Positions 5,351-64,000 of a stretch of 64,000 nt of DNA are shown in pieces. The translations under genes were made by a program, and so were the position numbers. Source of the stretch: Stegostoma tigrinum (lineage: Eukaryota); assembly GCF_030684315.1 (NCBI RefSeq), contig NC_081360.1, positions 31,727,818 to 31,791,817 of the forward strand, written 5' to 3'. Below the pieces are notes generated by a model, which searched no databases, was not told the origin of the DNA, and saw only the letters and a list, made by a program, of their open reading frames with translations. Each line of letters begins with the position of its first letter. The stretch's first letter is position 1.

Positions 5351-6129
5351 ATTAGAATGAATTTGAAGAGACTACTCAATTGGAATGTACAAATTAACTG
5401 TGAAGCTTTTGTGCAGAAATGGTACAAACAATTTAAGGCAGAAAGCAGATTTACTATTAAAACCACATCCAAAACTTCCTTTCTGAGCTGGGCCACTCTA
5501 CTATTATTTTTGCAAGAATAATATTTTGTTAAGTCCCTCATGATTGACACACATTGAATATCATAAGGTGAATTTAATTGCACAGTAGTTATGTACTGGT
5601 TGTCACAGAATGCCAATTCTTGTTTATTATGTGCAAGTATCATTTTAACAATACAATAAGTGTAAATTATCAACAATTAACTCTATGGCACTGAATTTTA
5701 GCTAATACTATTTCATTCCATAAGATATTAACTATTGGACATTCAAAAAAGTAAGAAAAATGCATTTCCTTTCTGTCCTTTTGGCTTTTTCTTCCCAATT
5801 CATCATTGAATTTGCACCTTCTATACTTCCGTCCCATTATTTCTGCTGTCTATTTCTCAATTCTTCAATTTGATTGGTTAAGGAGATGCGTCTTTCCATG
5901 GTCCATTCACTCAGCTCCAAGGTGATTGATCCATTTCCTGTGCTCTGCTGTTGTCAGTAGATTCAGCAGCTTGTCGCACAAAAAAATGTTTAAATTTAAA
6001 CCGATTTCTCAAAGTTGGAGAAGGCCATTTTGCCCTTTAAACCTGCTTGCTATTCAACACAATCATGGGTGATCTTCAAGCCCAACTCAACTTTCCTGCA
6101 CTGTCCTTGTACCCCTTCACTGCACATCT

Positions 6130-6633
6130 CCCTGCTGGGATATTGGTGCCTGTCCAGTTCAGGTGCAATCCATCCTTCTTATACACCTGCCCTGAAAGAC
6201 ATCCCAATGACCCACATACCTGAAGCCCTCCCTCCTACAGTAGCTCTTTAACCACATATTTAGCTGTACTATCTTCCTGTTCCTAACCTCACTGGCATGT
6301 GGCACAGTAAGTAATTCTGAGGTTACAACCTAGAGGTCATGCTTTTCAACTTCCTATCCAACTCCCTGAATTCCTTTTGCAGGACCTCATCTCTGCACCT
6401 GTTTTTGCTACCAATATGGACCACAGCCTTTGGCTGCTCACCCTTCCCCTTCAGAATTTCCTGTGCCCACTCAGAAACATCTTTGACCCAGGCACTGGGG
6501 AGCAACTCACCATCCTAAAATCCCGCAACCACAGAAATGTCTACTGTGCACTTGACTCTAGAGTCCCTATCATTACTGCTTGCTGAGACTTCAACTCTCC
6601 CTGCTGTACAACTGTACCAGTTGTGGTGCCACT
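6130..6633 (-). mobile_element. CR1 ORF1 (SGNH esterase-like) relic, distal part, split by a Penelope insertion
   Basis: ORF 6323-6505 (LPSAWVKDVSE...GEQPKAVVHIG...DEVLQKEFRELDRKLKS) matches the CR1 ORF1 esterase pattern. It continues after 8731. Confidence 0.75.
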
Positions 6634-6730
6634 GATAATGGGAACTGCAGATGCTGGAGAATCCAAGATAATAAAGTGTGAAGCTGGATGAACACAGCAG
6701 GCCAAGCAGCATCCCAGGAGCACAAAAGCT

Positions 6731-6758
6731 GACTTTTCGGGCCTAGACCCTTCATCAG
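6731..6758 (-). ncRNA. Minimal hammerhead ribozyme motif in Penelope pLTR (mutated stem III)
   Basis: The reverse complement reads CTGATGA-AGGGTCTAGGCCC-GAAA-AGTC. Confidence 0.6.
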
Positions 6759-8204
6759 AGAGGGGGATGCGGAGAGGGTTCTGGAATAAATAGGGAGAGA
6801 GGGGGAGGTGGACCGAAGATGGAGAGAAAAGAAGATAGGTGGAGAGGTAGTGAGGGGATAGGTCAGTCCAGGGAAGACGGACAGGTCAAGGAGGTGGATT
6901 GAGGTTAGTAGGTAGGAGATGGAGGTGCGGCTCGGGGTGGGAGGAAGGGATGGGTGAGAGGAAGAACAGGTTAGGGAGGCAGAGACAGGCTGGGCTGGTT
7001 TTGGGATGCAGTGGGGGGAGGGGACAAACTGGGCTGGTTTTGGGATGCGGTGGGGGAAGGGGAGATTTTGAAGCTGGGGAAGTCCACATTGATACCATTG
7101 GGCTGCAGGGTTCCCAAGCGGAATATGAGTTGCTGTTCCTGCAACCTTCGGGTGGCATCATTGTGGCACTATAGGAGGTCCATGATGGACATGTCATCTA
7201 AAGAATGGGAGGGGGAGTTAAAATGGTTCACGACTGGGAGGTGCAGTTGTTTATTGCGAACCGAGTGGAGGTGTTCTGCAAAGCGGTCCCCAAGCCTCCG
7301 CTTGGTTTCCCCAATGTAGAAGAAGCCACACTGGGTACAATGGATACAGTATACCACATTGGCAGATGTGCAGGTGAACCTCTACTTAATATGGAAAGTC
7401 ATCTTGGGGCCTGGGATAGGGGTGAGGGAGGAGGTGTGGAGGCAAGTGTGGCATTTCCTGCAGTTGCAGGGGAAGGTGCCGGGTGTGGTTCCCCCCACAG
7501 TGGTCGAGAACGCCCTTGACCGTGTCTCCCGCATTTCCCGCAACACATCCCTCACACACCGCCCCCACCACAACCGCCCCAAGAGGATCCCCTTCGTTCC
7601 CACACACCACCCCACCAACCTCCGGATACAACGCATCATCCTCCGACACTTCCGCCATCTACAATCCGAGCCCACCACCCAAGACATTTTTCCATCCCCA
7701 CCCCTGTCTGCTTTCCGGAGAGACCACTCTCTCCGTGACTTCCTTGTTCGCTCCACACTGCCCTCCAACCCCACCACACCCAGCACCTTCCCCTGCAACC
7801 ACAGGAAATGCCACACTTGCCCCCACACCTCCTCCCTCACCCCTATCCCAGGCCCCAAGATGACTTTCCATAATAAGCAGAGGTTCACCTGCACATCTGC
7901 CAATGTGGTATACTGTATCCATTGTACCCGGTGTGGCCTCCTCTACATTGGGGAAACCAAGCGGAGGCTTGGGGACCGCTTTGCAGAACACCTCTGCTCA
8001 GTTCGCAATAAACAACTGCACCTGCCAGTCGCGAACCATTTCAACTCCCCCTCCCATTCTTTAGATGACATGTCCATCATGGGCCTCCTACAGTGCCACA
8101 ATGATGCCACCCGAAGGTTGCAGGAACAGCAACTCATATTCCGCTTGGGAACCCTGCAGCCCAATGGTATCAATGTGGACTTCACCAGCTTCAAAATCTC
8201 CCCT

Positions 8205-8392
8205 TCCCCCACTGCAATTCAAAACCAGCCCAGTTCGTCCCCTCCCCCCACTGCACCACACAACCAGCCCAGCTCTTCCCCTTCCCCCACCGCATCCCAA
8301 AACCAGCCCAGTTCGTCCCCTCCCCCCACTGCATCACACAACCAGCCCAGCTCTTCCCCTCCCCCCACTGCATCCCAAAACCAGCCCAGCCC
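8205..8392 (+). repeat. 39-bp tandem repeat (13-aa NQPSSSPPPTASQ-like unit, about 5 copies)
   Basis: Repeated AACCAGCCCAG...CCCCCACTGCA units, visible in the translation of ORF 7359-8408. Confidence 0.9.
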
Positions 8393-8638
8393 GTCTCTGC
8401 CTCCCTAACCTGTTCTTCCTCTCACCCATCCCTTCCTCCCACCCCAAGCCGCACCTCCATTTCCTACCTACTAACCTCATCCCACCTCCTTGACCTGTTC
8501 GTCTTCCCTGGACTGACCTATCCCCTCCCTACCTCCCCACCTATACTCTCCTCTCCACCTATCTTCTTTTCTCTCCATCTTCGGTCCGCCTCCCCCTCTC
8601 TCCCTATTTATTTCAGAACCCTCACCCCATCCCCCTCT

Positions 8639-8666
8639 CTGATGAAGGGTCTAGGCCCGAAACATC
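8639..8666 (+). ncRNA. Minimal hammerhead ribozyme motif in Penelope pLTR
   Basis: CTGATGA-AGGGTCTAGGCCC-GAAA-CATC (CGTC changed to CATC, consistent with CpG decay). Confidence 0.6.
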
Positions 8667-8730
8667 AGCTTTTGTGCTCCTGAGATGCTGCTTGGCCTGC
8701 TGTGTTCATCCAGCTTCACACTTTATTATC

Positions 8731-9130
8731 GTGGTGCCACTGATCTGGCTGCTATTGCTGCTTTCATCTGAAAGGCCATCCCTCCCCCTCCCCAACCTCT
8801 AACAGTATCCAAAACAGTTTACCTGTTTGAGCAGGGGCTCCTACAGTGTCTGCCCATGCTTACTTGTCTTCCTGGTGGTCACCCAACTCTTCTCTGTCTG
8901 TCTAGCCCTTACAGATGATGTGACCAACTTGCTAAATGTGCTATCCATGACATTCTCAGCCTCATGGATGCTCCATTGTGAATCCATCCTCAGCTCTAGC
9001 CTCTCCATGCAAATCAGGAGCTGCAGATGAACACATTTCCTGAACATGTGGTCACCATGGACACCGGATGTGACCCTGATTTCTCACATACTGCAAGAGG
9101 AGCATTCCATGGGCCTGAGTTCTCCTGCCA
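8731..9130 (-). mobile_element. CR1 ORF1 N-terminal relic (continuation of 6130-6633)
   Basis: ORF 8841-9047 (CVHLQLL...RLELRMD...EAENVMDSTFSKLVT...WVTTRK) resembles the CR1 ORF1 Cys/leucine-zipper region. Confidence 0.65.
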
Positions 9131-9384
9131 TTTTGAGCCTTACCAACTAAAATCAACCTTATCAACTATAGCAACAGTCCAGAAACTGATTACACAACCT
9201 AATCCAATAGTCACCAAACTCAGGTCTTTCACTCCTAACAGACTACAACTACAAAAAGTAAGTCCTCATCTCATTAAGATTCTGCTTGTCCCTGAGCAGC
9301 CAAGCCTACGTCACTTTTTGAGTCATGATATCGGCTCCAGAGTTCCACCCCTAGATTCAGCTCCATGTTTACTCTGATGACTGG

Positions 9385-9647
9385 CACAGTGTGAAAGAGG
9401 TAGTTTGCCCCATTAAGTGTGCACCAATCCACAGACAGATTCCCCCCCCAGACCCAGCCTTCCATCCTATTCCTGTATTTACCATGGCCAATCCATCTAA
9501 CATGCACGTTTTTTGGACTGTGGGAGGAAATCGGATCACTGAGCAGAAGCAGGGAGAACGTGCAAACTCCACACACACTGTCAGCCAAAGCTGGAATTAA
9601 ACCTGGTGCTGTGAGGCAGCAGTACTGACTGCTGAGCCACCTTGCCA
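9385..9647 (-). mobile_element. HE1/V-SINE-like element
   Basis: Reverse complement has a GGTGGCTCAG head and the TGTGGAGTTTGCACGTTCTCC V-domain. Confidence 0.85.
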
Positions 9648-10663
9648 CTCACAGCACTAGGTTCTCTCTTTCAAGTCATGCTTCAGCAAGACATAGCCAG
9701 TTTATCTTTTCAATCAATGTAGCAAAAGTCAATGGGAAATCATGTTCTTTCAAATTCTGGAAAATTGCAGCAACTCTTATCAGTCTGTGACGTCAAAGTC
9801 CCACAAGAGCCAAGTAGCAGATTACACAAAATTTGTAAAATGAAGTAAATAGCTAAAAGCTTGTAATAAACTTTGAGAAAGCTTTGAAAAGTTGCTGCAA
9901 GGTGGATACTGTGGCATGTTTGTGCACTGGTCTTTGAAGGTGGCAGACCAGATTAACAAAGCAGATATAAATAGAGGCCAAAAGCCAGGAAGTTATATGT
10001 AAAATTTGTATCAAACAATTATTTAGAATATTGGGCAGAATTTGCTCATCTTAAATTAGTGTTTAGTTAAGATTCAAGGTTTAAAGCAACTTTTCTTGCC
10101 AAAAATTGTAAATGCCACCATCAGACCATTTATTACCTTTGGAATTGTGCCCTGTACCCCTAAATCCAAGTATTAGAAGTTCAAGTGATCGTACTACTGA
10201 GTGGCATAAGAGGATATGCAGGAACTATTCTAGCCATTGTCATAATCTTTCCTCATGGTCAAATTATTCAATTAGTGCTATAAAACAACAGAAGTAGAAA
10301 TTGTATAAAGATCTAACTACTTATTTGTCTGTGCAAATTACTCACGTGTTCTTCAGATCTGAAATTTCAGTTGATCTGCATAAATTCATGATAAACTCAG
10401 TTCAAGGATTTAACTTCACAGTGACATATGATCTCCAAGCCAAGGGGGAGAAAAGTCACATTTTCATTATCAGTACTATAACATATCACTCTTAGCACAA
10501 TACAGTTACTACCTTACATTGTAAGGTCAATACCACTTGAATAAATCAAATATGCAGTTGAGTAATCCCAATTATAGAACCACTAAACTGTGACACTTCC
10601 CTTTCACCCCCACTTCATCTCTGGCCAAAAGCTTTATATTCACATTAATCTATTTATATCGGT

Positions 10664-11379: not shown

Positions 11380-13070
11380 CTTGTCCATCTAAACTTATGT
11401 TCTCTCTCCTCTGATATTTACTGCCCTTTTATTGTCAGTCCTTCCATGTGACACTCTAACCCAGTTTGATGGTCACGCCCTTGACCTTGTCATTTTCATG
11501 CTGTCCTACTAGTCCTATCATATCAATTGCAGATAGGCTATCTCTGATCTCTTGCTTGCACCACTCACCATTCACATTCCCTCCATACCTCAAAACCAAC
11601 TTCCTTCCATATCTGTCTCTAGAAAAATCTATCCTGCAATTTTACTTACAGCTGCAATTTCAAAATCTGAAACATCAAGCCTTTAGCTCTCTATTAACAT
11701 TTCTGCAACTACTGATTTACTCAACTGCACCCTCATCTCCACCTTGGTGTCCTAGTCACTGTTAAACCATATGCCCTTCCACTGTGGCTGGTTCCTCAAA
11801 ATGAACCACATCTCCAACTCCAAGGAACACAACTAAAACAGCAGATAACTGCTTTAGCCATCACTGCCAAATCTGATTGAATCACTAGTGGTCCTGCTGT
11901 TGCCAGTTAAACTTTGTCACTATTCCTGGATCATACTGAGAAGCCAGATTTCAGCTTCTTTTCTGTACTGCAGACTGTATTTCTAAGCCCTTCTTCCTGT
12001 TCACTCCTATCTTCGCTTTGAATGAGAATTATAATACTCTTGTCACAGATGACACAATCTAACCAGCTTGTTCTGCAATGTTTTCCACTTCCATTTCCAC
12101 TAGCCCACCTGACTAAATTCCTTAAATGTTTCCCTGTGCCCGAGCACTGCACTCTCATTTTTCTATTTTCTGCCATTATCTCCTAAAGCCTTCAACTGAA
12201 TTCATTTTGTCCATGAGATCTACCTTCTGGTCAAACTGATTACCCCTGCTGGCACCCACATCTGCTAATATTATGAATATCAGTTCTCTCTTTCTTCAGG
12301 TGTTGTTCTTTCCTCCTTTAAGTCTGCTTTAAATTACTCTGACTTCAAAAAAAAACTTGCCAACTATCAATTCATCTCCAACCTGCTTTCCTTTCTGAAG
12401 TCCTCGAAGACCAAATTCATTCCAAATTTTTTGATTGCTCCAATTAGGTTTCCACTCCTTCTGCAACCTCTGACATTACCATCCTCCAACATCTCTGCAC
12501 TGTTACTCAGCAGATTGAAACTGTTCTCTAATGATTCTATTCTTATCTAAACATAACCAGAGAATCATTCAAAATGGAAAACCGAAAGAACTGTGAATGC
12601 TGGAGTCAGAAGCAAGACCTGAAATTGCTGGAAAAATTCACCTGGTCTGGCATCTTTGTAGAGAAAGCAGAGTTAACTCTTGAGTCCAGTGACCCTTCTT
12701 CAGAAATGAAACAAGTTCTGAAGGAGGATCACTGGATCCCTGGAACTGAAATGTTAACTGCTTTCTCTTCACTGATGCTGCCAGGCTTGCCTTGTTTTTT
12801 CCCGCAATTTCTGGTTTTGCTTATCATTTGGAATGGCTTCTCTTCCTGCTCCAACAACATTATCTCTCATTTTTTCTAGGATCGATCTTTGACAATGCCT
12901 TCCCATTTCTCGTCTACATGCTGCTTTTTTCAACATCAGTTAAAGACAATGCAATTTTTTTTACATGTAGCCTGATAACACCCAGTTCTATTAGCACACT
13001 TCAATCGTTGCCTTATTATCAGACTCATTATTTATCATCCATTCATGAAAGAAGAGTTACAGAGTGACAG
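11380..13070 (+). mobile_element. Highly degraded L2/CR1-clade LINE fragments
   Basis: Pyrimidine-rich tract with a GHALDL-like endonuclease remnant near 11470 and RT-like remnants. It is interrupted by a fold-back element at 12579. Confidence 0.45.
12579..12822. mobile_element. Miniature fold-back Penelope pLTR element (family 2)
   Basis: Inverted arms are centred on ...CCCTTCTTCAGAA / TTCTGAAGGAGG..., with degenerate hammerhead cores. Degenerate TSD atcatt..aatgg. Confidence 0.7.
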
Positions 13071-14599: not shown

Positions 14600-16096
14600 C
14601 TGAGGAAGAAAATAAAAATCATCAAGGAGAAAGAAATCAATTTCTAAATACAGTCAAAAGAACTACTAAGACAATAGTACCAACCTTATCATCCAAGACA
14701 ACTTTAGTCCCTCCATATTCTGGGAGTAGAACTGTTTCACCAACTTTTACATTAACGGGGTGAATATCACCATTCTGAAATGAAAATGCAAATGATCCAC
14801 AAATTAATGTTTGTGAACAGTGCTCTAGCCAAAGTTTATAATGCACCGTACAGAAATTTGCACTTTTTGCTTATCTGTGAATTTGCAGCAAGTTACAAGT
14901 AGTAGTACTTGTAACTTGCTGCAAATTCACAGATAAGCTTTCTAATTATACCTAAGAGAAATTATACCTAAACTTAATAAAACAAAACAGCAGGCCACTT
15001 TGGAACACAGTATAAAAATATAATCTATTGGATCAGACTTTGTTAATGTAATAATCACAAGCATTTAGTTGATTAGGATTTTGTTTTCAGAAAACTACCT
15101 TTACTCGGCTGCCAGGTCCAACTGCTACAACTGTTGCTTGAAGTACTTTACCCTGGGATTTTTCTGGAAGCATGATGCCACCTTTTGTTACCTTCTCTGC
15201 TGCCACCCTTTCCACCAAAACACGGTCAAAAAGGGGCAGAAACTTTTTAAATGCCTGTCCTGCCTGTTAAAATAAAACGTTTCAGTTACCTATTAACCAA
15301 CAGGTTACAGACCACATATTGAAAGCTTTACCACTTCTGAGATCTACAAATAAAAAGGTCAACCCAAAATGAATCTTGAGAGAAAAAGTGATAGCTGAAT
15401 TTTTTTGTTATAAAGAACTAGATAACCTGTCCTTAGACTGTTAGCTTAGTTTTCACAGCTATTATGAATATATATAAAATAAACTCCTAAATGTAACATC
15501 ATTAGAAATAAAAAACCATGATCCAAATGCTGAAAATGTAACATATTACCTTAAGAAGGGCGTAAAACAGCAGCTGAAGATATTAATATGGAAAAAAATT
15601 ATTTCTCAACATAAATGTTGAGGACATTTAAAAATCAAGCTCATTTGACCTTGAAACTGTCCCCAACATCAAATCTAAAATCGTTAAATAAGTTGCACGT
15701 AACAGATCATCATTTTTATCCAAATGTCGGTGTGGTTACATAGTAACAAACGTAGTTCTTCAATCCATTACTTTTGTTACAAACTGATCTGTAGTAGCGA
15801 GACAGGTCACAAGCACATTTGTCCTTTCATTCATCAGGATTGTAACCAGTCGGTGGCCTGGCGAATCATTTCCCTGCTAGAGTAGGAATATTTCAAAAGG
15901 ATCATATTCCCTGTTTGAACTGAGCTATCAAACACGATAAATTATTTTGTATCCAGCACATGCTCAACTGGATTTAAAACAACGCAACTTACCATTTCAA
16001 CATCAGGAAGTCACAAAAATACTTATCAAGAACAATACGTAAATCGGTTTATTCTTCTCATTCAGTATATCACAAACAAAAACGTAAGCTTACCAT
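14549..16096 (-). CDS. hspe1: 10 kDa heat shock protein, mitochondrial (Hsp10/GroES), 102 aa, 4 coding exons
   Basis: Join of complement(16094-16096, 15099-15263, 14685-14774, 14549-14599) = 309 nt. All introns are GT-AG. Protein: MAGQAFKKFLPLFDRVLVER...KGGIMLPEKSQGKVLQATVVAVGPG...VLLPEYGGTKVVLDDKDYYLFRDGDILGKYTA*. Confidence 0.98.
14685..14774 (-). CDS. hspe1: hspe1 exon 3
   Basis: NGDIHPVNVKVGETVLLPEYGGTKVVLDDK, 90 nt, AG/GT bounded. Confidence 0.97.
14869..14938. repeat. Perfect 33-bp inverted repeat with 4-nt loop (hspe1 intron 2)
   Basis: GCTTATCTGTGAATTTGCAGCAAGTTACAAGTA-gtag-TACTTGTAACTTGCTGCAAATTCACAGATAAGC. Confidence 0.95.
15099..15263 (-). CDS. hspe1: hspe1 exon 2
   Basis: AGQAFKKFLPLFDRVLVERVAAEKVTKGGIMLPEKSQGKVLQATVVAVGPGSRVK, 165 nt. 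Confidence 0.97.
16094..16096 (-). CDS. hspe1: hspe1 exon 1 coding part (ATG only)
   Basis: GGC ATG|GTAAGC, matching the vertebrate ATG-only first exon. An alternative ATG|GTAAG lies at 15993-15995. Confidence 0.75.
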
Positions 16097-17148: not shown

Positions 17149-34913
<17,765 letters not shown>

Positions 34914-37523: not shown

Positions 37524-40500
37524 CTGTAGGTTTAAAAAAAAACACAACATTAAACAGAGTTCTCTTTTACACCTCAGAACAGTACAGAAAACTAACTTGT
37601 TTAACTTAATACAAATTTAAAATCCAAAAGGCAATTACATCATCTGTGATCTAACCAAAGTTATGAGAACTTTTCCACATGTTCCTGGACTTGTCAGTTT
37701 ACACCAATTTTTTGCTTCCAGAATTAGGTCTCTGCTTTAATCACCACGGTCTTGGTCATCTTCCCATTCATTCTTAATCCATGTTGGTATGGTCAAGTTG
37801 GACCAAAGGGTCTGTTTCCATGCTGTACATCCCTTATGACTATATAAATTCCTGAGGGGAGGTGCTCAGATCTTAACAGTAGTTCGAGGAGGATATAAGC
37901 AGGGTTTGTATAACTGCAGCATAACTTCTGTATCCTTGTATTCCAGTCCTCTTGGTATAAAAGGCGAGCATTCATTAGCTTTCTTGGTTATTTTCTACAC
38001 CTGCTAGTGACATTTGAAAGATCTACACACATGAACTCCCAAGTAACTTTGGACATATGTATTCAACTTTATACCATCTAGAAAGTACCCTGATCTATCC
38101 TTAGATAAGGTGGTGTAGAGCTGGATGAACACAGCAGGCCAAGCAGCATCAGAGGAGCAGGAAGGCTGACATTTCAGACCTAGACCCTTCTTCAGAAATG
38201 ACTTCAGAAGAAGGGTCTAAGCTCGAAACGTTGGCCTTCTTGCTCCTCTGATGCTGCTTGGCCTGCTGTGCTCCTCCAGCTCTGCACCTGGTTATCTCGG
38301 ATTCTCCAGCATCTGCAGTTCCTACTATCTCTGATCTATCCTTAGATCCTATAACTATTTGATCACATCATAAGCAGAGAGAACAGACAGAATTATCAAA
38401 GATCAACCAAAACCACAACAGGAAACAATAGAGAAAAAAAATGACTGTTACAATGGCCTGGATGCAACTGACCTATGAGAAAATATGGAAGGTCAGCACA
38501 AGACAGGTGAATATCCACAGCTGTCAACCTTCAGAGAACATAACACCAATGCACAAACATCATTTACAGATCTTAAAACAATTTGAGGTATAGCTGAAAG
38601 GAACCTTTACAGTACAGTCACTGTTGCGATGCAAGAACCTGGAGGACATCTAAAAATTTCCTTTTATCCCTGATTTGCGCTAAATTATGTTTATACATCA
38701 CCCCTAAGCTCATTGACTTACAATGGCTCCAAGACCACAAATAATTCAAATTTTAAAAATTGTCAACCTTATTTAAAAATCTCTCTAGGGTTTCACCCTC
38801 TCCCTAGTCTACAATGCCGGAAGATTTGCGTTTCAAAGTTCTCTACCTAGCCAATTCTGGCTTTTTTTGTGTTTCTTAATCACTACAACTTTGATCGTCG
38901 TGTTCAGCAGTCTTGCCCCAAACGTATGAATCCCCTAACCTGGCCTCTGATATTCAGGCCACTCTTTGCACATTTATCCTATATCTCAACTGCAGCAAGG
39001 TGGTAGAAATCAGAAGCAAAAGAATCAGTATCTTTGAAGAAAGTCAAATGTTTCATAAAGCCTAAAAACATTAAGTAAACACAAATGTAAAAAAACAAAA
39101 AACCTGGATGCTGGAAATCTGGCAAAAACAGAAGTTGGTGGACATATTTACAGAGCTAATATTTCACATCCACTTGTTATCTCAGATTCTCCAACATCTG
39201 CAGTTCCCATTATCTCTGATTTCAAATCCAGTGATTCTTTTGCCGGACACAAAGTTCTATAGAAGGGTCACTGGACTCAACGTTAACTCTGCTTTCTCTC
39301 CATGGATGCTGCCAGATTGCCGAGTTTATCCAGGAGTTTCTGTTTTTCGTTGTACAAGTGCAATTAATTGTTTTGTAAAAGGCAAATACATTTCAAATAA
39401 TACTGATCAAAGAATAAGCATTGACTATGACACCAAAAAATATTGCCAAGGAATTAGAAAGAGCATTATGGGTTTTGTGTTTATATTAAGTGTTCACTAG
39501 AACAAATCTGTTTAATTTTGGAGCCAAAGACTACACTTCACCCAGAGCACAGCAGACCCTCATTACTGCTGTAATTAGCCTCAACTGTGCACTCAAATTT
39601 CTACAGTGGAACATGAATCCACAATCTTCTGACTCAGACAAGAATATCACCATCGAGCCACAGCTGACACTTAGATCAGGCGTTCCTTCTCCTGTGAGGG
39701 ATTATTCTTCCTCATCTTTTCCATTAACAGAAATAGGCACCAATGCAAGTTGAAGAGCTTTTATGACAAAGATAACCTTGTTACCACCTATTTCCAAATT
39801 GAGAGAATACACAGTTATAAGTCTGCACAAAACTATTAGATGAGTACTCAACCAATGACAGGACACTGTAAAACTCATAGGAGCAGAGGGATCTTGGGGT
39901 GCTTGTCCACAGATTCCTAAATGTGGCAGGACAGATTAATAGGGTAGTTTAGGCAACATACAGGACACTTGTAATCTATGTGAAGACTGATAAAAGCAAG
40001 TAGGGGAGGTCATGTTGGAGCTGTACAAAAAAAAACTTCGAAGGCCACAGCTGAAGTGTGCCTGGAATTTTGGTCAACGGACTATAGGAAGGATGAGATT
40101 ACACTGGAAGAGGTGCAGAGGAGATTGATCAGGATCAGCAGCCATTCCCCTTAGATGAAGGATCAACAACAAAAGGGGCATAATGAAAGACAGGTGGTAA
40201 AGAGGATTTGAGAAAGATTCTCCCTCTCCCCCAGCATCCAGAGGGTGGTAAAAAAACCTGGAATGCACAGCCCCGGAGGGCAGTTGAGGCAGGAAACCTC
40301 AACTTTTAATAAAGTACTTGGATGAGTAACCAAAAAGGTTGTCACATTCAAGTGCTGAGAAATGGAACTAATGTAGATTTAGAGTATTTTTTGTCAGTCC
40401 ACACCGGAAAAGCATCTTCTATATTGTAGCATTCTACGGAATATCTACAAAAGAAGTTAGAGGATATCCAACATTAAACTTCAGGGATGGAGCAACAGCA

Positions 40501-54205: not shown

Positions 54206-54420
54206 ACAAGGTGAAGAGCTGGATGAACACAGCAGGCCAGGCAGCATCAGAGGAGCAGGAAGGCTGACGTTTCAGGCCTCGGCCATTCTTCTGAAGAAGG
54301 GTCTAGGCCCAAAACGACAGCCATCCTGCTCCTCTGATGCTGCTTGGCCTGCTGTGTTCATCCAGTTCTACACCTTGTTATCTCCAATTCTCCAGCATCT
54401 GCCGTTCTTGCTATCTCTGA
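54206..54420. mobile_element. Miniature fold-back Penelope pLTR element
   Basis: Inverted arms meet at CTGAAGAAGGGTCTAGGCCCAAAACG, with a one-sided tail. TSD TCC(C/A)TGAAATC at 54195 and 54421. Confidence 0.85.
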
Positions 54421-54841
54421 TCCATGAAATCCTCTATTTCTCCTAACCGCAATGTTTACTGTCTATTTAACCAAAGAGTGCATTCTATTCCACTTTGACT
54501 ACGTTCAACTTCATTTGGTTGTTAAATAACTCTCTGAACAATTAATTTGCTTTGTGGATGATCAGAGTCATAACACATAGAAAGAAAAGTTGTCTGACCA
54601 AATGTTAATTACTTAATTACTAGTCAAGATGAATTAATACGCGATACGACATTATTGGTCCATCATGTTTTGCAAATGATAGCCTGTACACTCTACACAG
54701 TATCGTAAAGCAAAACAAAATGTATAAAGTGCAGAACTAAGTAAAATGCTTAGGAATGAATTGTACAAATGAAAAGGAAAAGACATGCATTGTTAAAACA
54801 CATTTCATGATCACTTTGTATCCAAAAGTACTTTAGAACCA

Positions 54842-60330: not shown

Positions 60331-60912
60331 GTAAAGTAAATTATTCGAATCTTGCCTCCTGTTCTTTTATAAGTTACCTTAATTGTATATCCTGCGATTA
60401 CCAACTCTCTGCCACTAGAAACTATTCCTTATAATTAATTTGAACAAAATGCTTCATAATTTTGAATAAGCCTATCTAACCTCCTCTTAATTTTCTGAGT
60501 TTTAAAGGAAACAACCCAGGTTCACATGTAACTGAAGTCTCACATTTCCAGTACTATTCTCCCAAATGTCCTCCAACCCTCCCTGAGATAGACATTGTTA
60601 AAGTATGGTGCCCACAGTTGGACATAATACTCCAGCTGATGCCTATCCAATGTTTTATGTATGTTTAGCACAACTTCCTTGTTTTTGCTCATTAAGTCCC
60701 AGCTTTTTTAAAGAGAAGGATCATATGTGTTTTTTGAACCTATCTTGCCAAACTCAAATATTGATTCAAAGATAGTAGAAACTGCAGATGCTGGAGAATC
60801 TGAAATAACAAGGTGTAGAGCTAGATGAACGCAGCAGGCCAAACAGCATCAGTGGAGCAGGAAAGCTGACGTTTTGGGTCTGGATTTCTGAAGAAGGATC
60901 CAGACAGGAAAT

Positions 60913-61144
60913 AGTATCAGAGATAATGGGAACTGCAGATGCTGGAGATTCCAAGATAATAAAATGTGAGGCTGGATGAACACAGCAGGCCAAGCAGCAT
61001 CTCAGGAGCACAAAAGCTGACGTTTCGGGCCTAGACCCTTCATCAGAGAGCTCTGATGAAGGGTCTAGGCCCGAAACGTCAGCTTTTGTGCTCCTGAGAT
61101 GCTGCTTGGCCTGCTGTGTTCATCCAGCCTCACATTTTATTATC
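60913..61144. mobile_element. Young miniature fold-back Penelope element: perfect 94-bp palindrome plus one-sided tail
   Basis: Arms 60955-61048 and 61051-61144 are exact reverse complements. TSD CAGACAGGAAAT at 60901 and 61145. Confidence 0.93.
61019..61080. ncRNA. Two back-to-back minimal hammerhead ribozyme motifs (one per strand)
   Basis: Plus strand 61053-61080 and minus strand 61019-61046 both read CTGATGA-AGGGTCTAGGCCC-GAAA-CGTC. Confidence 0.7.
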
Positions 61145-61674
61145 CAGACAGGAAATGTCAGTTTTCCTGTTCCTCTGTTGCTGCTTGGCCTGCTCTGTTC
61201 ATCCAGCTCTAAACCTTGTTATCTCAAACTCAAAGATTGTATGTCTACCCACAGGTTTCTCTGTTCCTGTATTCTTATCTCCCAACAGTCTTTAAGAGAA
61301 GTAAATTTAAATGGTAGAGACCAGTTGCACAAATGTAATACAAAGTATAACTTTAAAATAGCATTGCATCATAATTTTAAATAATACTTTGACTTGATAC
61401 ATATAGTTTAGCAAAACATGACAACTTAACAGATGAATAGATTTTTTTAACTCATAAGATGGCTAAACAATCGAAGGTGCTAGGAAATACAAGATTAAAT
61501 TGCTCAGAGATAGTAAGAACTGTCGACTAAATTGCTACTGTGTCAGAAATTTTATATTCTGTCAAGTTTAAATGGGAAGTTTAATCATTTGAGTTTAAGA
61601 TGCTCAAGATTTTGGTTATCTGTCATATGATCTTTTTATATGGTTACGTCAAATTTTGTTTGTTTCTTTAATTC

Positions 61675-62398: not shown

Positions 62399-64000
62399 AA
62401 GACCATAAGACATAGGAGTGGAAGTGAGGCCATTCGTCCCATCAAGTCCACTCCGCCATTTAAATCATGGCTGATGGGCGTTTCAACTCCACTTCCCTGC
62501 ACTCTCCCCGTAGCCCTTGATTCCTCCTGAGATCAAGAATTTGTCGATCTCTGCCTTGAAGGCATCCAACGTCCTGGCCTCTGCTGCACTCCGTGGCAAT
62601 GAATTCCACAAGCTCACCACTCTCTGGCTGAAGAAATATTGTCTCATTTCAGCTTTAAAATTACCCCCTCTAATTTTAAGGCTGTGCCCATGGGTCCTAG
62701 TCTCCCCGCCTAATGGAAACAACTTCCGAGCGTCCACCCCTTCTAAACCATACATTATCTTATAAGTTTCTATTAATCGCCCCTCAACCTTCTAAACTTT
62801 AATGAGTACAATCCCAGGACCCTTAGCCGTTCATCATATGTTAAACCTACCATTCCAGGGATCATCCGTGTGAATCTCCGCTGGACATGGTCCAGGGCTA
62901 GTATGTCCTTCCTGAGGTGTGGGGCCCAAAATTGGACACAGTATTCTAAATGGGGCCTAACTAGAGCTTTATAAAGCCTCAGAAGCACATCGCTGCTTTT
63001 ATATTCCAACCCTGTTGAGATAAACGACAACATTACATTTGCTTTCTCAATTATTGACTCTACCTGCCAGTTAACCTTTAGTGACTCCTGGACCAACACT
63101 CCCAGATCCCTTTGTACTTCTGCTTTACGAATTTTCTCACCATTTAGAAAATAGTACATGCCTGTATTCTTTTTGCCAAAGTGCAAAACCTCATATTTAC
63201 TCACATTGAATTTCATCAGCCATTTCTTGGACCACTCTCCTAAACTGTCTAAATCTTTCTGCAGCTTCCCCACCTCCTCAGTACTACCTGCCTGTCCACC
63301 TATCTTTGTATCATCGGCAAACTTTGCCAGAATGCCCCCAGTCCCTTCATGCAGATCATTAACATATAAGGTAGCAGCTGCGGCCCCAACACTGAACCTT
63401 GCGGGACACCACTTGTCACCGGTTGTCATTCCGAAAAACAGCCTTTTATCCCAACTCTCTGCCTTCTGTCAGACAGCCAGTCCTCAATTCAAGCCAGTAG
63501 CTCACCTCGAACACCATGGGCCCTCACCTTGTTCAGCAGCCTCCCATGAGGCACCTTATCAAAGGCCTTTTGGAAGTCGAGATGGATAACATCTACTGGG
63601 TTTCCCTGGTCTAACATACTTGTTACCTCTTCAAAGAATTCTAACAGGTTTGTCAGGCACGACATCCCCTTACTAAATCCATGCTGACTTGTTCTGATCT
63701 GACCGTGCACTTCCACGAATTTAGAAATCTCATCCTTGGCAATGGATTCCAGAATTTTACCAATTACCAAGTTTAGGCTAATTGGCCTATAACTTTCCAT
63801 CTTTTGCCTTGATCCTTTCTTAAACAAGGGAATTACAACAGCAATTTTCCAATCATCTGGGACTTTCCCTGACTCCAGTGACTTTTGAAAGATCACGACC
63901 AAAGCCTCCGCTATTTCCTCAGCCACTTCCCTCAGAACTCTAGGATGTAGCCCATCGGGGCCAGGAGATTTATCAATTTTTAGACCTTTTAGCTTTTCTA
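62399..64000 (-). mobile_element. Young CR1 LINE ORF2 (RT to 3' end), runs off the window
   Basis: ORFs 63489-63926 (YRPISL, QHGF, LDFQKAFDKVPH), 62773-63429 (YVNDL, KFADDTK, LVRPHLEYCVQFW) and 62483-62755, with few frameshifts. Confidence 0.95.

Follow-up and report, generated by a model that had tools for sequence, protein, structure and literature searches.

Introduction

Insertions of endonuclease-bearing (EN+) Penelope-like elements (PLEs) are described as containing an inverted, 5'-truncated copy of the element together with a tail of 30-40 bp (Craig et al. 2021, PMC8557442; Arkhipova et al. 2013, PMC3846280), and in the available text of the former report the origin of head-to-head and tailed PLE insertions is called undefined. 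The present study concerns an insertion of comparable build, a palindrome with a one-sided tail at positions 60913-61144 of a 64,000-nucleotide stretch of the Stegostoma tigrinum genome (contig NC_081360.1, positions 31,727,818 to 31,791,817 of the forward strand; hereafter the window). On the sequence evidence set out below, this palindrome was probably formed during insertion of an EN+ PLE that has recently been highly active, and represents a minimal form of its insertion products.

The arms of the palindrome carry minimal hammerhead ribozyme cores. For PLE hammerheads of this kind, the available text of Cervera and de la Pena (2014, PMC4209133) reports opposite-strand pairs 100-700 bp apart in Schistosoma and a helix I of 2 bp in Drosophila, proposes circles, and states that in vivo evidence is absent. 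The available part of another account (PMC6765202) holds that PLE ribozymes cleave as dimers, and slowly in vitro. The protein of PAc, a Poseidon element of the green anole, nicks and extends both target strands in vitro, cleavage is described as protein-assisted, and two internal reverse transcriptase (RT) start sites delimit the tail (Frangieh et al. 2024, PMC11167929). In the text of that report that was searched, inverted insertions are not discussed, the word "inverted" being used once, for an oligo block. In vivo cutting by minimal PLE hammerheads is left open in the available texts of both PMC4209133 and PMC11167929.

Structure of the palindrome

The two arms (60955-61048 and 61051-61144) were found to be exact reverse complements of 94 nt each around a 2-nt centre; a core of the form CTGATGA-stem II-GAAACGTC is present on both strands, at 61053-61080 on the + strand and at 61046-61019 on the - strand. 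Element positions are numbered here with the C of CUGA as 0, the predicted hammerhead cut then giving a 5' end at +28; this cut position was set by hammerhead numbering and agrees with a count on the PAc sequence in the available text of PMC11167929. On this scale the long, tailed arm (60955-61050, - strand) spans -4 to +91 of the pseudo-long terminal repeat (pLTR) and the short, tail-less arm (61051-61144, + strand) spans -2 to +91. The unpaired centre (61049-61050) joins -4/-3 of the long arm to -2 of the short arm and is one of at least 27 junction types. The minimal type-I hammerhead core of the long arm (61019-61046, - strand) has its predicted cut after GUC, between 61019 and 61018, and the second minimal core, in the short arm (61053-61080, + strand), between 61080 and 61081.

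The 42-nt tail (60913-60954, - strand, +92 to +133) is confined to the left side and, in the full-length element, continues into the coding region. By analogy with PAc, in which the tail is delimited by RT start sites (PMC11167929, available text), its end would mark a downstream RT start point, and the end of the short arm presumably marks an upstream one. The insertion is flanked by a direct repeat of 15 bp (60898-60912 and 61142-61156, + strand), the target-site duplication (TSD), of which 12 bp lie outside the arm; the first 3 nt of the right copy are common to the short arm, and the last 4 nt of the left copy match the continuation of the element past the tail (microhomology). The initial annotation, made from the letters of the window alone, had described a perfect 94-bp palindrome with a 2-nt centre and one hammerhead core per strand, a one-sided tail of about 40 nt and a 12-bp TSD, all of which are confirmed by the sequence, and its view of a very recent, nested, Penelope-derived insertion with minimal hammerheads and a target duplication was likewise borne out. 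The term "ribozyme-bounded" does not fit, the cores lying at the centre of the palindrome and not at its boundaries.

Chance is excluded by a folding z-score of -28 together with 40 near-identical copies elsewhere, and a transcript of the whole palindrome is predicted to form a hairpin of -199.6 kcal/mol. As both cores are buried in this hairpin, the copy is most likely inert and a dead end, and on this folding model it probably does nothing further after insertion. Rfam returned no hammerhead family among 13 matches at E<=1, the minimal motif lying below the reach of the models.

The parent element

The core of the young element, used as an exact 42-nt query against the 3.2-Gb assembly, was found in 79,764 copies. 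Within the window, the tailed arm and tail are 97% identical to the pLTR and tail at 25639-25775, which belong to a 5'-truncated coding partner (24040-25775, + strand) comprising RT (YIDD), a CxxxxCxxC linker, GIY-YIG, a 3' untranslated region (UTR), pLTR and tail. Sequence comparison thus identifies the palindrome arms as the ribozyme-bearing end (pLTR) of a young PLE encoding RT and GIY-YIG. The YIDD and GIY-YIG motifs lie in one frame both in the window and at locus L103, where a complete, frameshifted unit measuring 3,528 nt from core to core was found and the tail continues into the coding region. The order at L103 (3' UTR piece, pLTR and tail, open reading frame (ORF), pLTR and tail) is that of a partial tandem ahead of a full-length copy. 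At the same locus (5509-9218), the frame beginning at the pLTR ATG meets a TGA at the tail end before the long ORF continues.

The features found are those of an EN+ PLE, namely RT with C-terminal GIY-YIG, a pLTR in partial tandem, a minimal hammerhead motif, an inverted 5' copy with a tail, and a TSD. In the partner frame CxxxxCxxC precedes GIY-YIG; a Cys linker of this type is common to Neptune and Nematis according to the available text of PMC8557442, and the element is probably an EN+ PLE of the Neptune type. A PDB sequence search with the RT-endonuclease frame gave 0 matches.

Head-to-head pairs across the genome

Loci picked by their core contained head-to-head pairs of every length, with breakpoints deep into the ORF; the 5' breakpoints ranged from +62 to beyond -2,600. 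The sample of 98 pairs, made up of core-picked loci and of palindromes picked by pattern, comprised 93 with one short (<+110) and one tailed arm, 4 with two tails and 1 with none, and 62 unpaired arms were divided into 30 short and 32 tailed. The 3' ends of arms fell into two clusters, +89 to +97 and +124 to +133 (near +92 and +128), and target duplications measured 13-16 bp in 52 of 70 insertions. A long head-to-head insertion of the young family, nine times the length of the palindrome, is present in the window itself (6634-8734, with a 14-bp TSD at 6623-6636 / 8731-8744) and joins a tailed arm from -776 to a short arm from -1060; the number of units of a 3' UTR minisatellite differs between its two arms. 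The palindrome lies at the short extreme of a graded series of head-to-head insertions.

Two cores stand back to back within 12 nt at 6,574 loci. A hand tally among 50 listed loci gave 27 centre types, with the centre of the present palindrome in 4, and its exact 38-nt centre was found at 323 loci, about 5% of the 6,574. In 40 loci with this centre (taken in list order from contigs C1-C4, those previously fetched being omitted), the side of the tail was split 21 to 18 between the two arms, with 1 locus tail-less, and at least 4 subfamily haplotypes were carried. As the side of the tail varies under one and the same centre, there is no sign of a master copy, which would fix it. A search with the palindrome itself gave 40 copies that match the whole 232 bp at 99-100%; of the 30 fetched, 28 were read out, and these have one centre, unique flanks and duplications of their own. 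The suggestion of the initial annotation, a non-coding fold-back element complete in itself and mobile as one unit, was not supported: the fixed structure of a MITE- or SINE-like family (miniature inverted-repeat transposable element; short interspersed nuclear element) was absent, centres and tail side varying as above, and the small-unit view is also countered by insertions built alike whose arms hold over 2 kb of coding sequence.

Preferred 5' ends of the arms

Foreign sequence at -9 to -7 was found in 17,099 arms, and the starts of both paired and solo arms are concentrated at -4 to -1. Of 26 listed arms with a start of precisely -4 and the sequence CTCT, 21 were preceded by an extra G, a proportion of 16 of 21 once perfect and near-perfect hairpins were removed (the extra-G counts here and at +28 are hand tallies, compared by Fisher test). 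RTs copy a cap as an extra G, and the site at -4 resembles a TCT initiator. On these sequence features -4 is likely a capped transcription start; in Drosophila Penelope, an internal promoter is placed in the pLTR (PMC2377424, available text). The commonest centre (8 of 50) is the one that would be expected if the last two bases of two cap-extended cDNA ends paired, and the centre of the present palindrome is a slightly trimmed form of it. Internal restarts at -4 with a preceding extra G, in tandem with a partial pLTR, were seen at L092 and L135.

A second preferred end coincides with the predicted hammerhead cut. Hairpins centred near this site numbered 969; of 50 listed, 40 have their joint precisely at +28 to +31, the first four bases after the cut, and 2 at a palindromic 4-mer that lies five bases upstream. 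A control site gave 154 hairpins, 6 of 50 listed being exact. Since +28 and +30 look the same in a hairpin joint, the analysis turned to the 2,371 arms preceded by foreign sequence. In a hand tally of 100 of these as listed, from which 11 intact copies with a 1-nt indel were dropped, the remaining 89 arms started at +26/27/28/29/30/31 in 6/10/39/8/16/10 cases (chi-square p 9e-10), the 10 starts at +27 being the excess expected from a chance one-base match. A G preceded 6 of the 39 starts at +28 (Fisher p 3e-7 against the proportion at -4), and its rarity there argues against a second capped start. Twenty of the loci with foreign upstream sequence comprised solos, lopsided hairpins, tandems and chimeras, together with an intact copy that carries an insertion and a locus with an internal deletion.

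The same end was prominent where a tail is followed directly by a further pLTR. All 55 such tandem junctions found genome-wide by one pattern were tallied by hand, several coming from one array; 43 begin at +28, 6 earlier and 6 later, and 28 of the 43 are free of microhomology ambiguity. Of 8 such loci retrieved, 5 proved to hold arrays of 2-5 successive tandem units whose junctions are ragged. At L281-L285 (G000 contigs C17, C2, C1, C6 and C23) and at L160, the repeated unit measures about 100 nt and runs from +28 to the tail end; a tail-less unit is often outermost, and the junctions of L281 vary unit by unit.

The sister insertions suggest a genomic sign of in vivo cleavage at the predicted hammerhead cut, and we consider it likely, from the distribution of these ends, that the minimal hammerhead of the parent RNA was cleaved in the germ line. 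The signs of ribozyme activity come from the RNA of the parent element and not from the present palindrome. At L148 and in three listed rows, copies that are intact in other respects have one surplus base precisely where the cut is predicted, possibly left by an RT that crossed over from the 3' cleavage product to the 5' one. The arms of L151 and L153 that start at +28 are fused to an older-family core and to a sense ORF piece, and are template-switch chimeras.

Proposed insertion mechanism

In the insertion model favoured here, the RNA would start about 4 nt ahead of the core, probably with a cap, and a minority of RNAs, to judge by the one-nucleotide peak, would be cut by the hammerhead after GUC and so start at +28. 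The RT-GIY-YIG protein would nick the two target strands about 14 nt apart, a stagger taken from the observed duplication length, and each nick would prime cDNA synthesis inside the RNA, near +92 or about +130, giving one short and one tailed arm; the pairing of a short with a tailed arm is observed, and the start sites are placed by analogy. Each cDNA would then extend to the 5' end of the RNA or, on a read-through transcript, into 3' UTR and ORF, and joining of the two ends, at which a few bases overlap, are lost or are added as filler, would form the head-to-head repeat. Where both cDNAs stop near -4, the 232-bp hairpin with its tail would result. In the arrays, an RT running off the cut end may re-prime at the tail start site and add a unit of about 100 nt repeatedly. 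The joint reading, in which each target strand uses one of two fixed start sites, the germ-line hammerhead cut provides a template and repeats of about 100 nt are added in a telomerase-like manner, is slightly favoured as a whole.

Alternative explanations

The published reading of head-to-head junctions has the second arm copied from the first, by fold-back of the cDNA or by self-priming on antisense RNA (Arkhipova et al. 2013, PMC3846280, available text), and the many centres that are perfect or near-perfect palindromes would suit it. At subfamily-diagnostic non-CpG sites, the two arms of a pair were discordant in 69 of 250 informative observations (27.6%) against 77.7% in shuffled pairs, and hence concordant at 72% of informative sites against 22%. 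This agreement far above that of random pairs, which fold-back copying or gene conversion would equally give, weighs against separate priming of the two arms, and several further points weigh against the insertion model as a whole: hypermutable diagnostic sites may inflate the discordance; the two strands were equal in start-site use in the PAc experiments in vitro (PMC11167929, available text); the listed loci come mostly from contigs C1-C6, in list order, and are non-random; and the Pfam scores (GIY-YIG, E 4e-4 and 7.5e-4; RVT_1, E 0.026) are all below gathering thresholds, so that the assignment of the element leans on motifs and layout too. Fold-back, however, has to contend with 59 discordances, counted with adjacent sites merged, against 17.3 expected from pair background divergence, and with different subfamily haplotypes on the two arms in 7 of 93 pairs (p<0.01 each). 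In 20 long pairs, the tail-less arm reached more than 20 nt further 5' in 6 and the tailed arm further in 11, with 3 level; as each arm extends past the other in 6 of the 20, holding sequence that is missing in its partner, neither was copied from the other there. Unpaired short and tailed arms are about equal in number (30 and 32) and solos also start near -4, so each arm type can arise alone. The arms appear to derive mostly from one RNA or source locus, and sometimes from different ones. Two separately primed cDNAs fit all pairs, whereas fold-back fits most short ones and needs extra steps for the rest, and we regard it as improbable. A non-autonomous hairpin element copied as a unit from a master locus, in the manner of a MITE or retrozyme, had seemed plausible from the 40 copies that match the whole 232 bp, and the 323 loci with an identical 38-nt centre might be read in the same way. 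Those 40, however, were top matches selected for likeness to the 232-bp query, the 323 are a small share of the back-to-back loci, and this reading foundered on the 27 centres among 50, the 21:18 division of tail side and the four or more haplotypes under one centre, which leave it very unlikely. An assembly artefact, with a longer element collapsed or mirrored at the locus, might be suspected since perfect palindromes assemble poorly and no contig from four runs spans the locus; with a 15-bp duplication bracketing the palindrome, and the same build recurring at thousands of loci with varied centres, inter-arm mutations and duplications of their own, this is extremely improbable.

Within the model of two separately primed cDNAs, the peak at +28 might have arisen without cleavage, through stalling of the RT at an RNA hairpin, transcription from a further start site (C-A at +27/+28) or biased joining at the self-complementary AGCT. 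RNAfold pairs bases 0-5 with 24-29, favouring a CUGA box paired with the CGUCAG stretch in a structure that closes at +29 and could stall the RT; +30 ranks second among the starts (16 of 89); self-annealing of AGCT is possible; and in the anole no RNA-seq ends were reported at the hammerhead cut of PAc (PMC11167929, available text). Cleavage is further called into question by stem I of the parent RNA, which by our reading has 2 base pairs only, and by the 15 of 43 tandem junctions at +28 that can be read as +29 via an A shared with the tail. A second, older family (175 matches, many of them decayed intact copies) gave a noisy count, about 5 of about 13 inverted junctions, scored by eye in 30 loci, starting at the cut. 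The peak is, however, confined to a single nucleotide at the predicted scissile bond, +29 having 8 starts against 39, and it holds both in tandem junctions, where self-annealing is impossible, and in solo copies. Joints at the neighbouring palindromic 4-mer are 20 times rarer, and the extra G of the -4 starts is missing at +28. An origin of the peak other than cleavage is considered unlikely.

Nesting and other features of the window

An older insertion built alike (about 60766-61224; 79% identity to the young element) surrounds the palindrome; the CUGA box is kept in just one of its arms, and that core is decayed. The tailed arm of the older insertion (60766-60884, - strand) shows this 79% identity and has its 5' end inside stem II, without the CUGA box; its short arm (60885-61224, + strand), which holds the decayed core, is split by the young insertion after 60912 and resumes at 61157. 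The duplication of the older insertion is 14/15 identical between its left (60749-60763, + strand) and right (61225-61239, + strand) copies. Its target would be a CR1-like RT relic (60528-60704, - strand), matched by tblastn at E 1e-6 to an RT frame of the window that is presumably of CR1 type, as its motifs suggest, Pfam giving RVT_1 alone. The continuation of the relic to the right of the insertion is weak, 8 of 300 shuffles having scored equally (best of three comparisons). Of the three-deep nesting first proposed, the older element with its own TSD stands, the CR1-like relic is probable on the left, and the right side of the relic is weak. Flank contigs of a second organism extend 24-28 nt into the older element, below the 31-letter rule, a hint from sequence that the older insertion may be shared with that organism. 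Preferential targeting of older pLTRs was considered and rejected: pLTR-like DNA, which makes up 2.3% of the window, lay beside 3 of 70 insertions, with no enrichment, as its density predicts, and the nesting is therefore attributed to chance.

A CR1-type RT frame (62773-63468, - strand) is part of a younger long interspersed nuclear element (LINE) copy at the right window end. Older Penelope-like pieces with RT frames occupy 17772-20652, and at 18453 a core of the second, older family ends in GAAACGTT and has a longer stem I; this family likewise makes hairpin-plus-tail insertions (L211-L240). Older hairpin-plus-tail stumps, each with its own centre, were found at 38120-38335, 54218-54421 and about 30130-30283, and two of these gave weak microRNA (miRNA) matches in Rfam. 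Further palindromic stretches at 14864-14946, 9595-9668 and 12672-12750 gave weak Rfam miRNA matches below gathering scores. Exon-like pieces of a Cpn60/HSP60 gene lie at 28105-34143 (+ strand; Pfam E 7e-8 for 33634-34140).

Discussion

The palindrome itself is ordinary for its class, and its value lies in the readout it offers of the junctions of its family: tens of thousands of young junctions make questions of insertion mechanism and cleavage countable. If the proposed repeat addition is true, it would resemble the action of telomerase, a sister RT, and could seed partial tandems and retrozyme-like arrays. In genome annotation, hairpins of this kind should be kept apart from MITEs and miRNA precursors. 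The literature search found no report of genomic 5' ends at a PLE hammerhead cut or of one start site per arm, the supplements of PMC11167929 (of which Fig. S2 maps genomic ends), Repbase and Dfam lying outside the search, which leaves priority uncertain. The layout of the element is in print already, and the pile-up of 5' ends at the hammerhead cut may be new here. The ends of Terminons are tied to their hammerheads.

Compared with the EN+ PLEs in the available descriptions, the present family shares a pLTR with a hammerhead, an inverted 5' copy, a tail at one end, a TSD, partial tandems and an RT followed by GIY-YIG, but differs in that two pLTR ends alone are found, at thousands of loci. 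The antisense self-priming proposed in 2013 (PMC3846280, available text) also differs from the situation here, where the junctions favour two separately templated cDNAs. The same GAAACGUC core is found in PAc (Frangieh et al. 2024, PMC11167929); unlike in the available text of that report, nearly every pair here has one site per arm, and the genomic 5' ends peak at the cut. The hammerhead resembles the minimal PLE hammerheads of Cervera and de la Pena (2014, PMC4209133) in being a type-I core that lacks a true stem III and is assumed to work as a dimer, but in contrast to the circles proposed in the available text of that work, the 3' cleavage product here would apparently be a direct linear template, and no core is present in the tandem units, whose junctions are ragged.

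Non-LTR retrozymes (Cervera and de la Pena 2020, PMC7229834; Li et al. 2026, bioRxiv 10.64898/2026.07.22.740005), as far as described in the available texts, are similarly short, non-coding, PLE-related and equipped with a type-I hammerhead. They consist, however, of direct tandem repeats with a whole ribozyme per unit, whereas the present palindrome is inverted and one-off, and the tandem units of L281-L285 mostly start at the cut, without the core. MITEs and fold-back DNA transposons (Goubert et al. 2022, PMC8969392, available text) are likewise short, palindromic, flanked by duplications and present in many copies. In place of their symmetric terminal inverted repeats and transposase, the insertions studied here have an asymmetric tail, a variable centre, arms that are the end of an RT-encoding retroelement, and an RT as partner.
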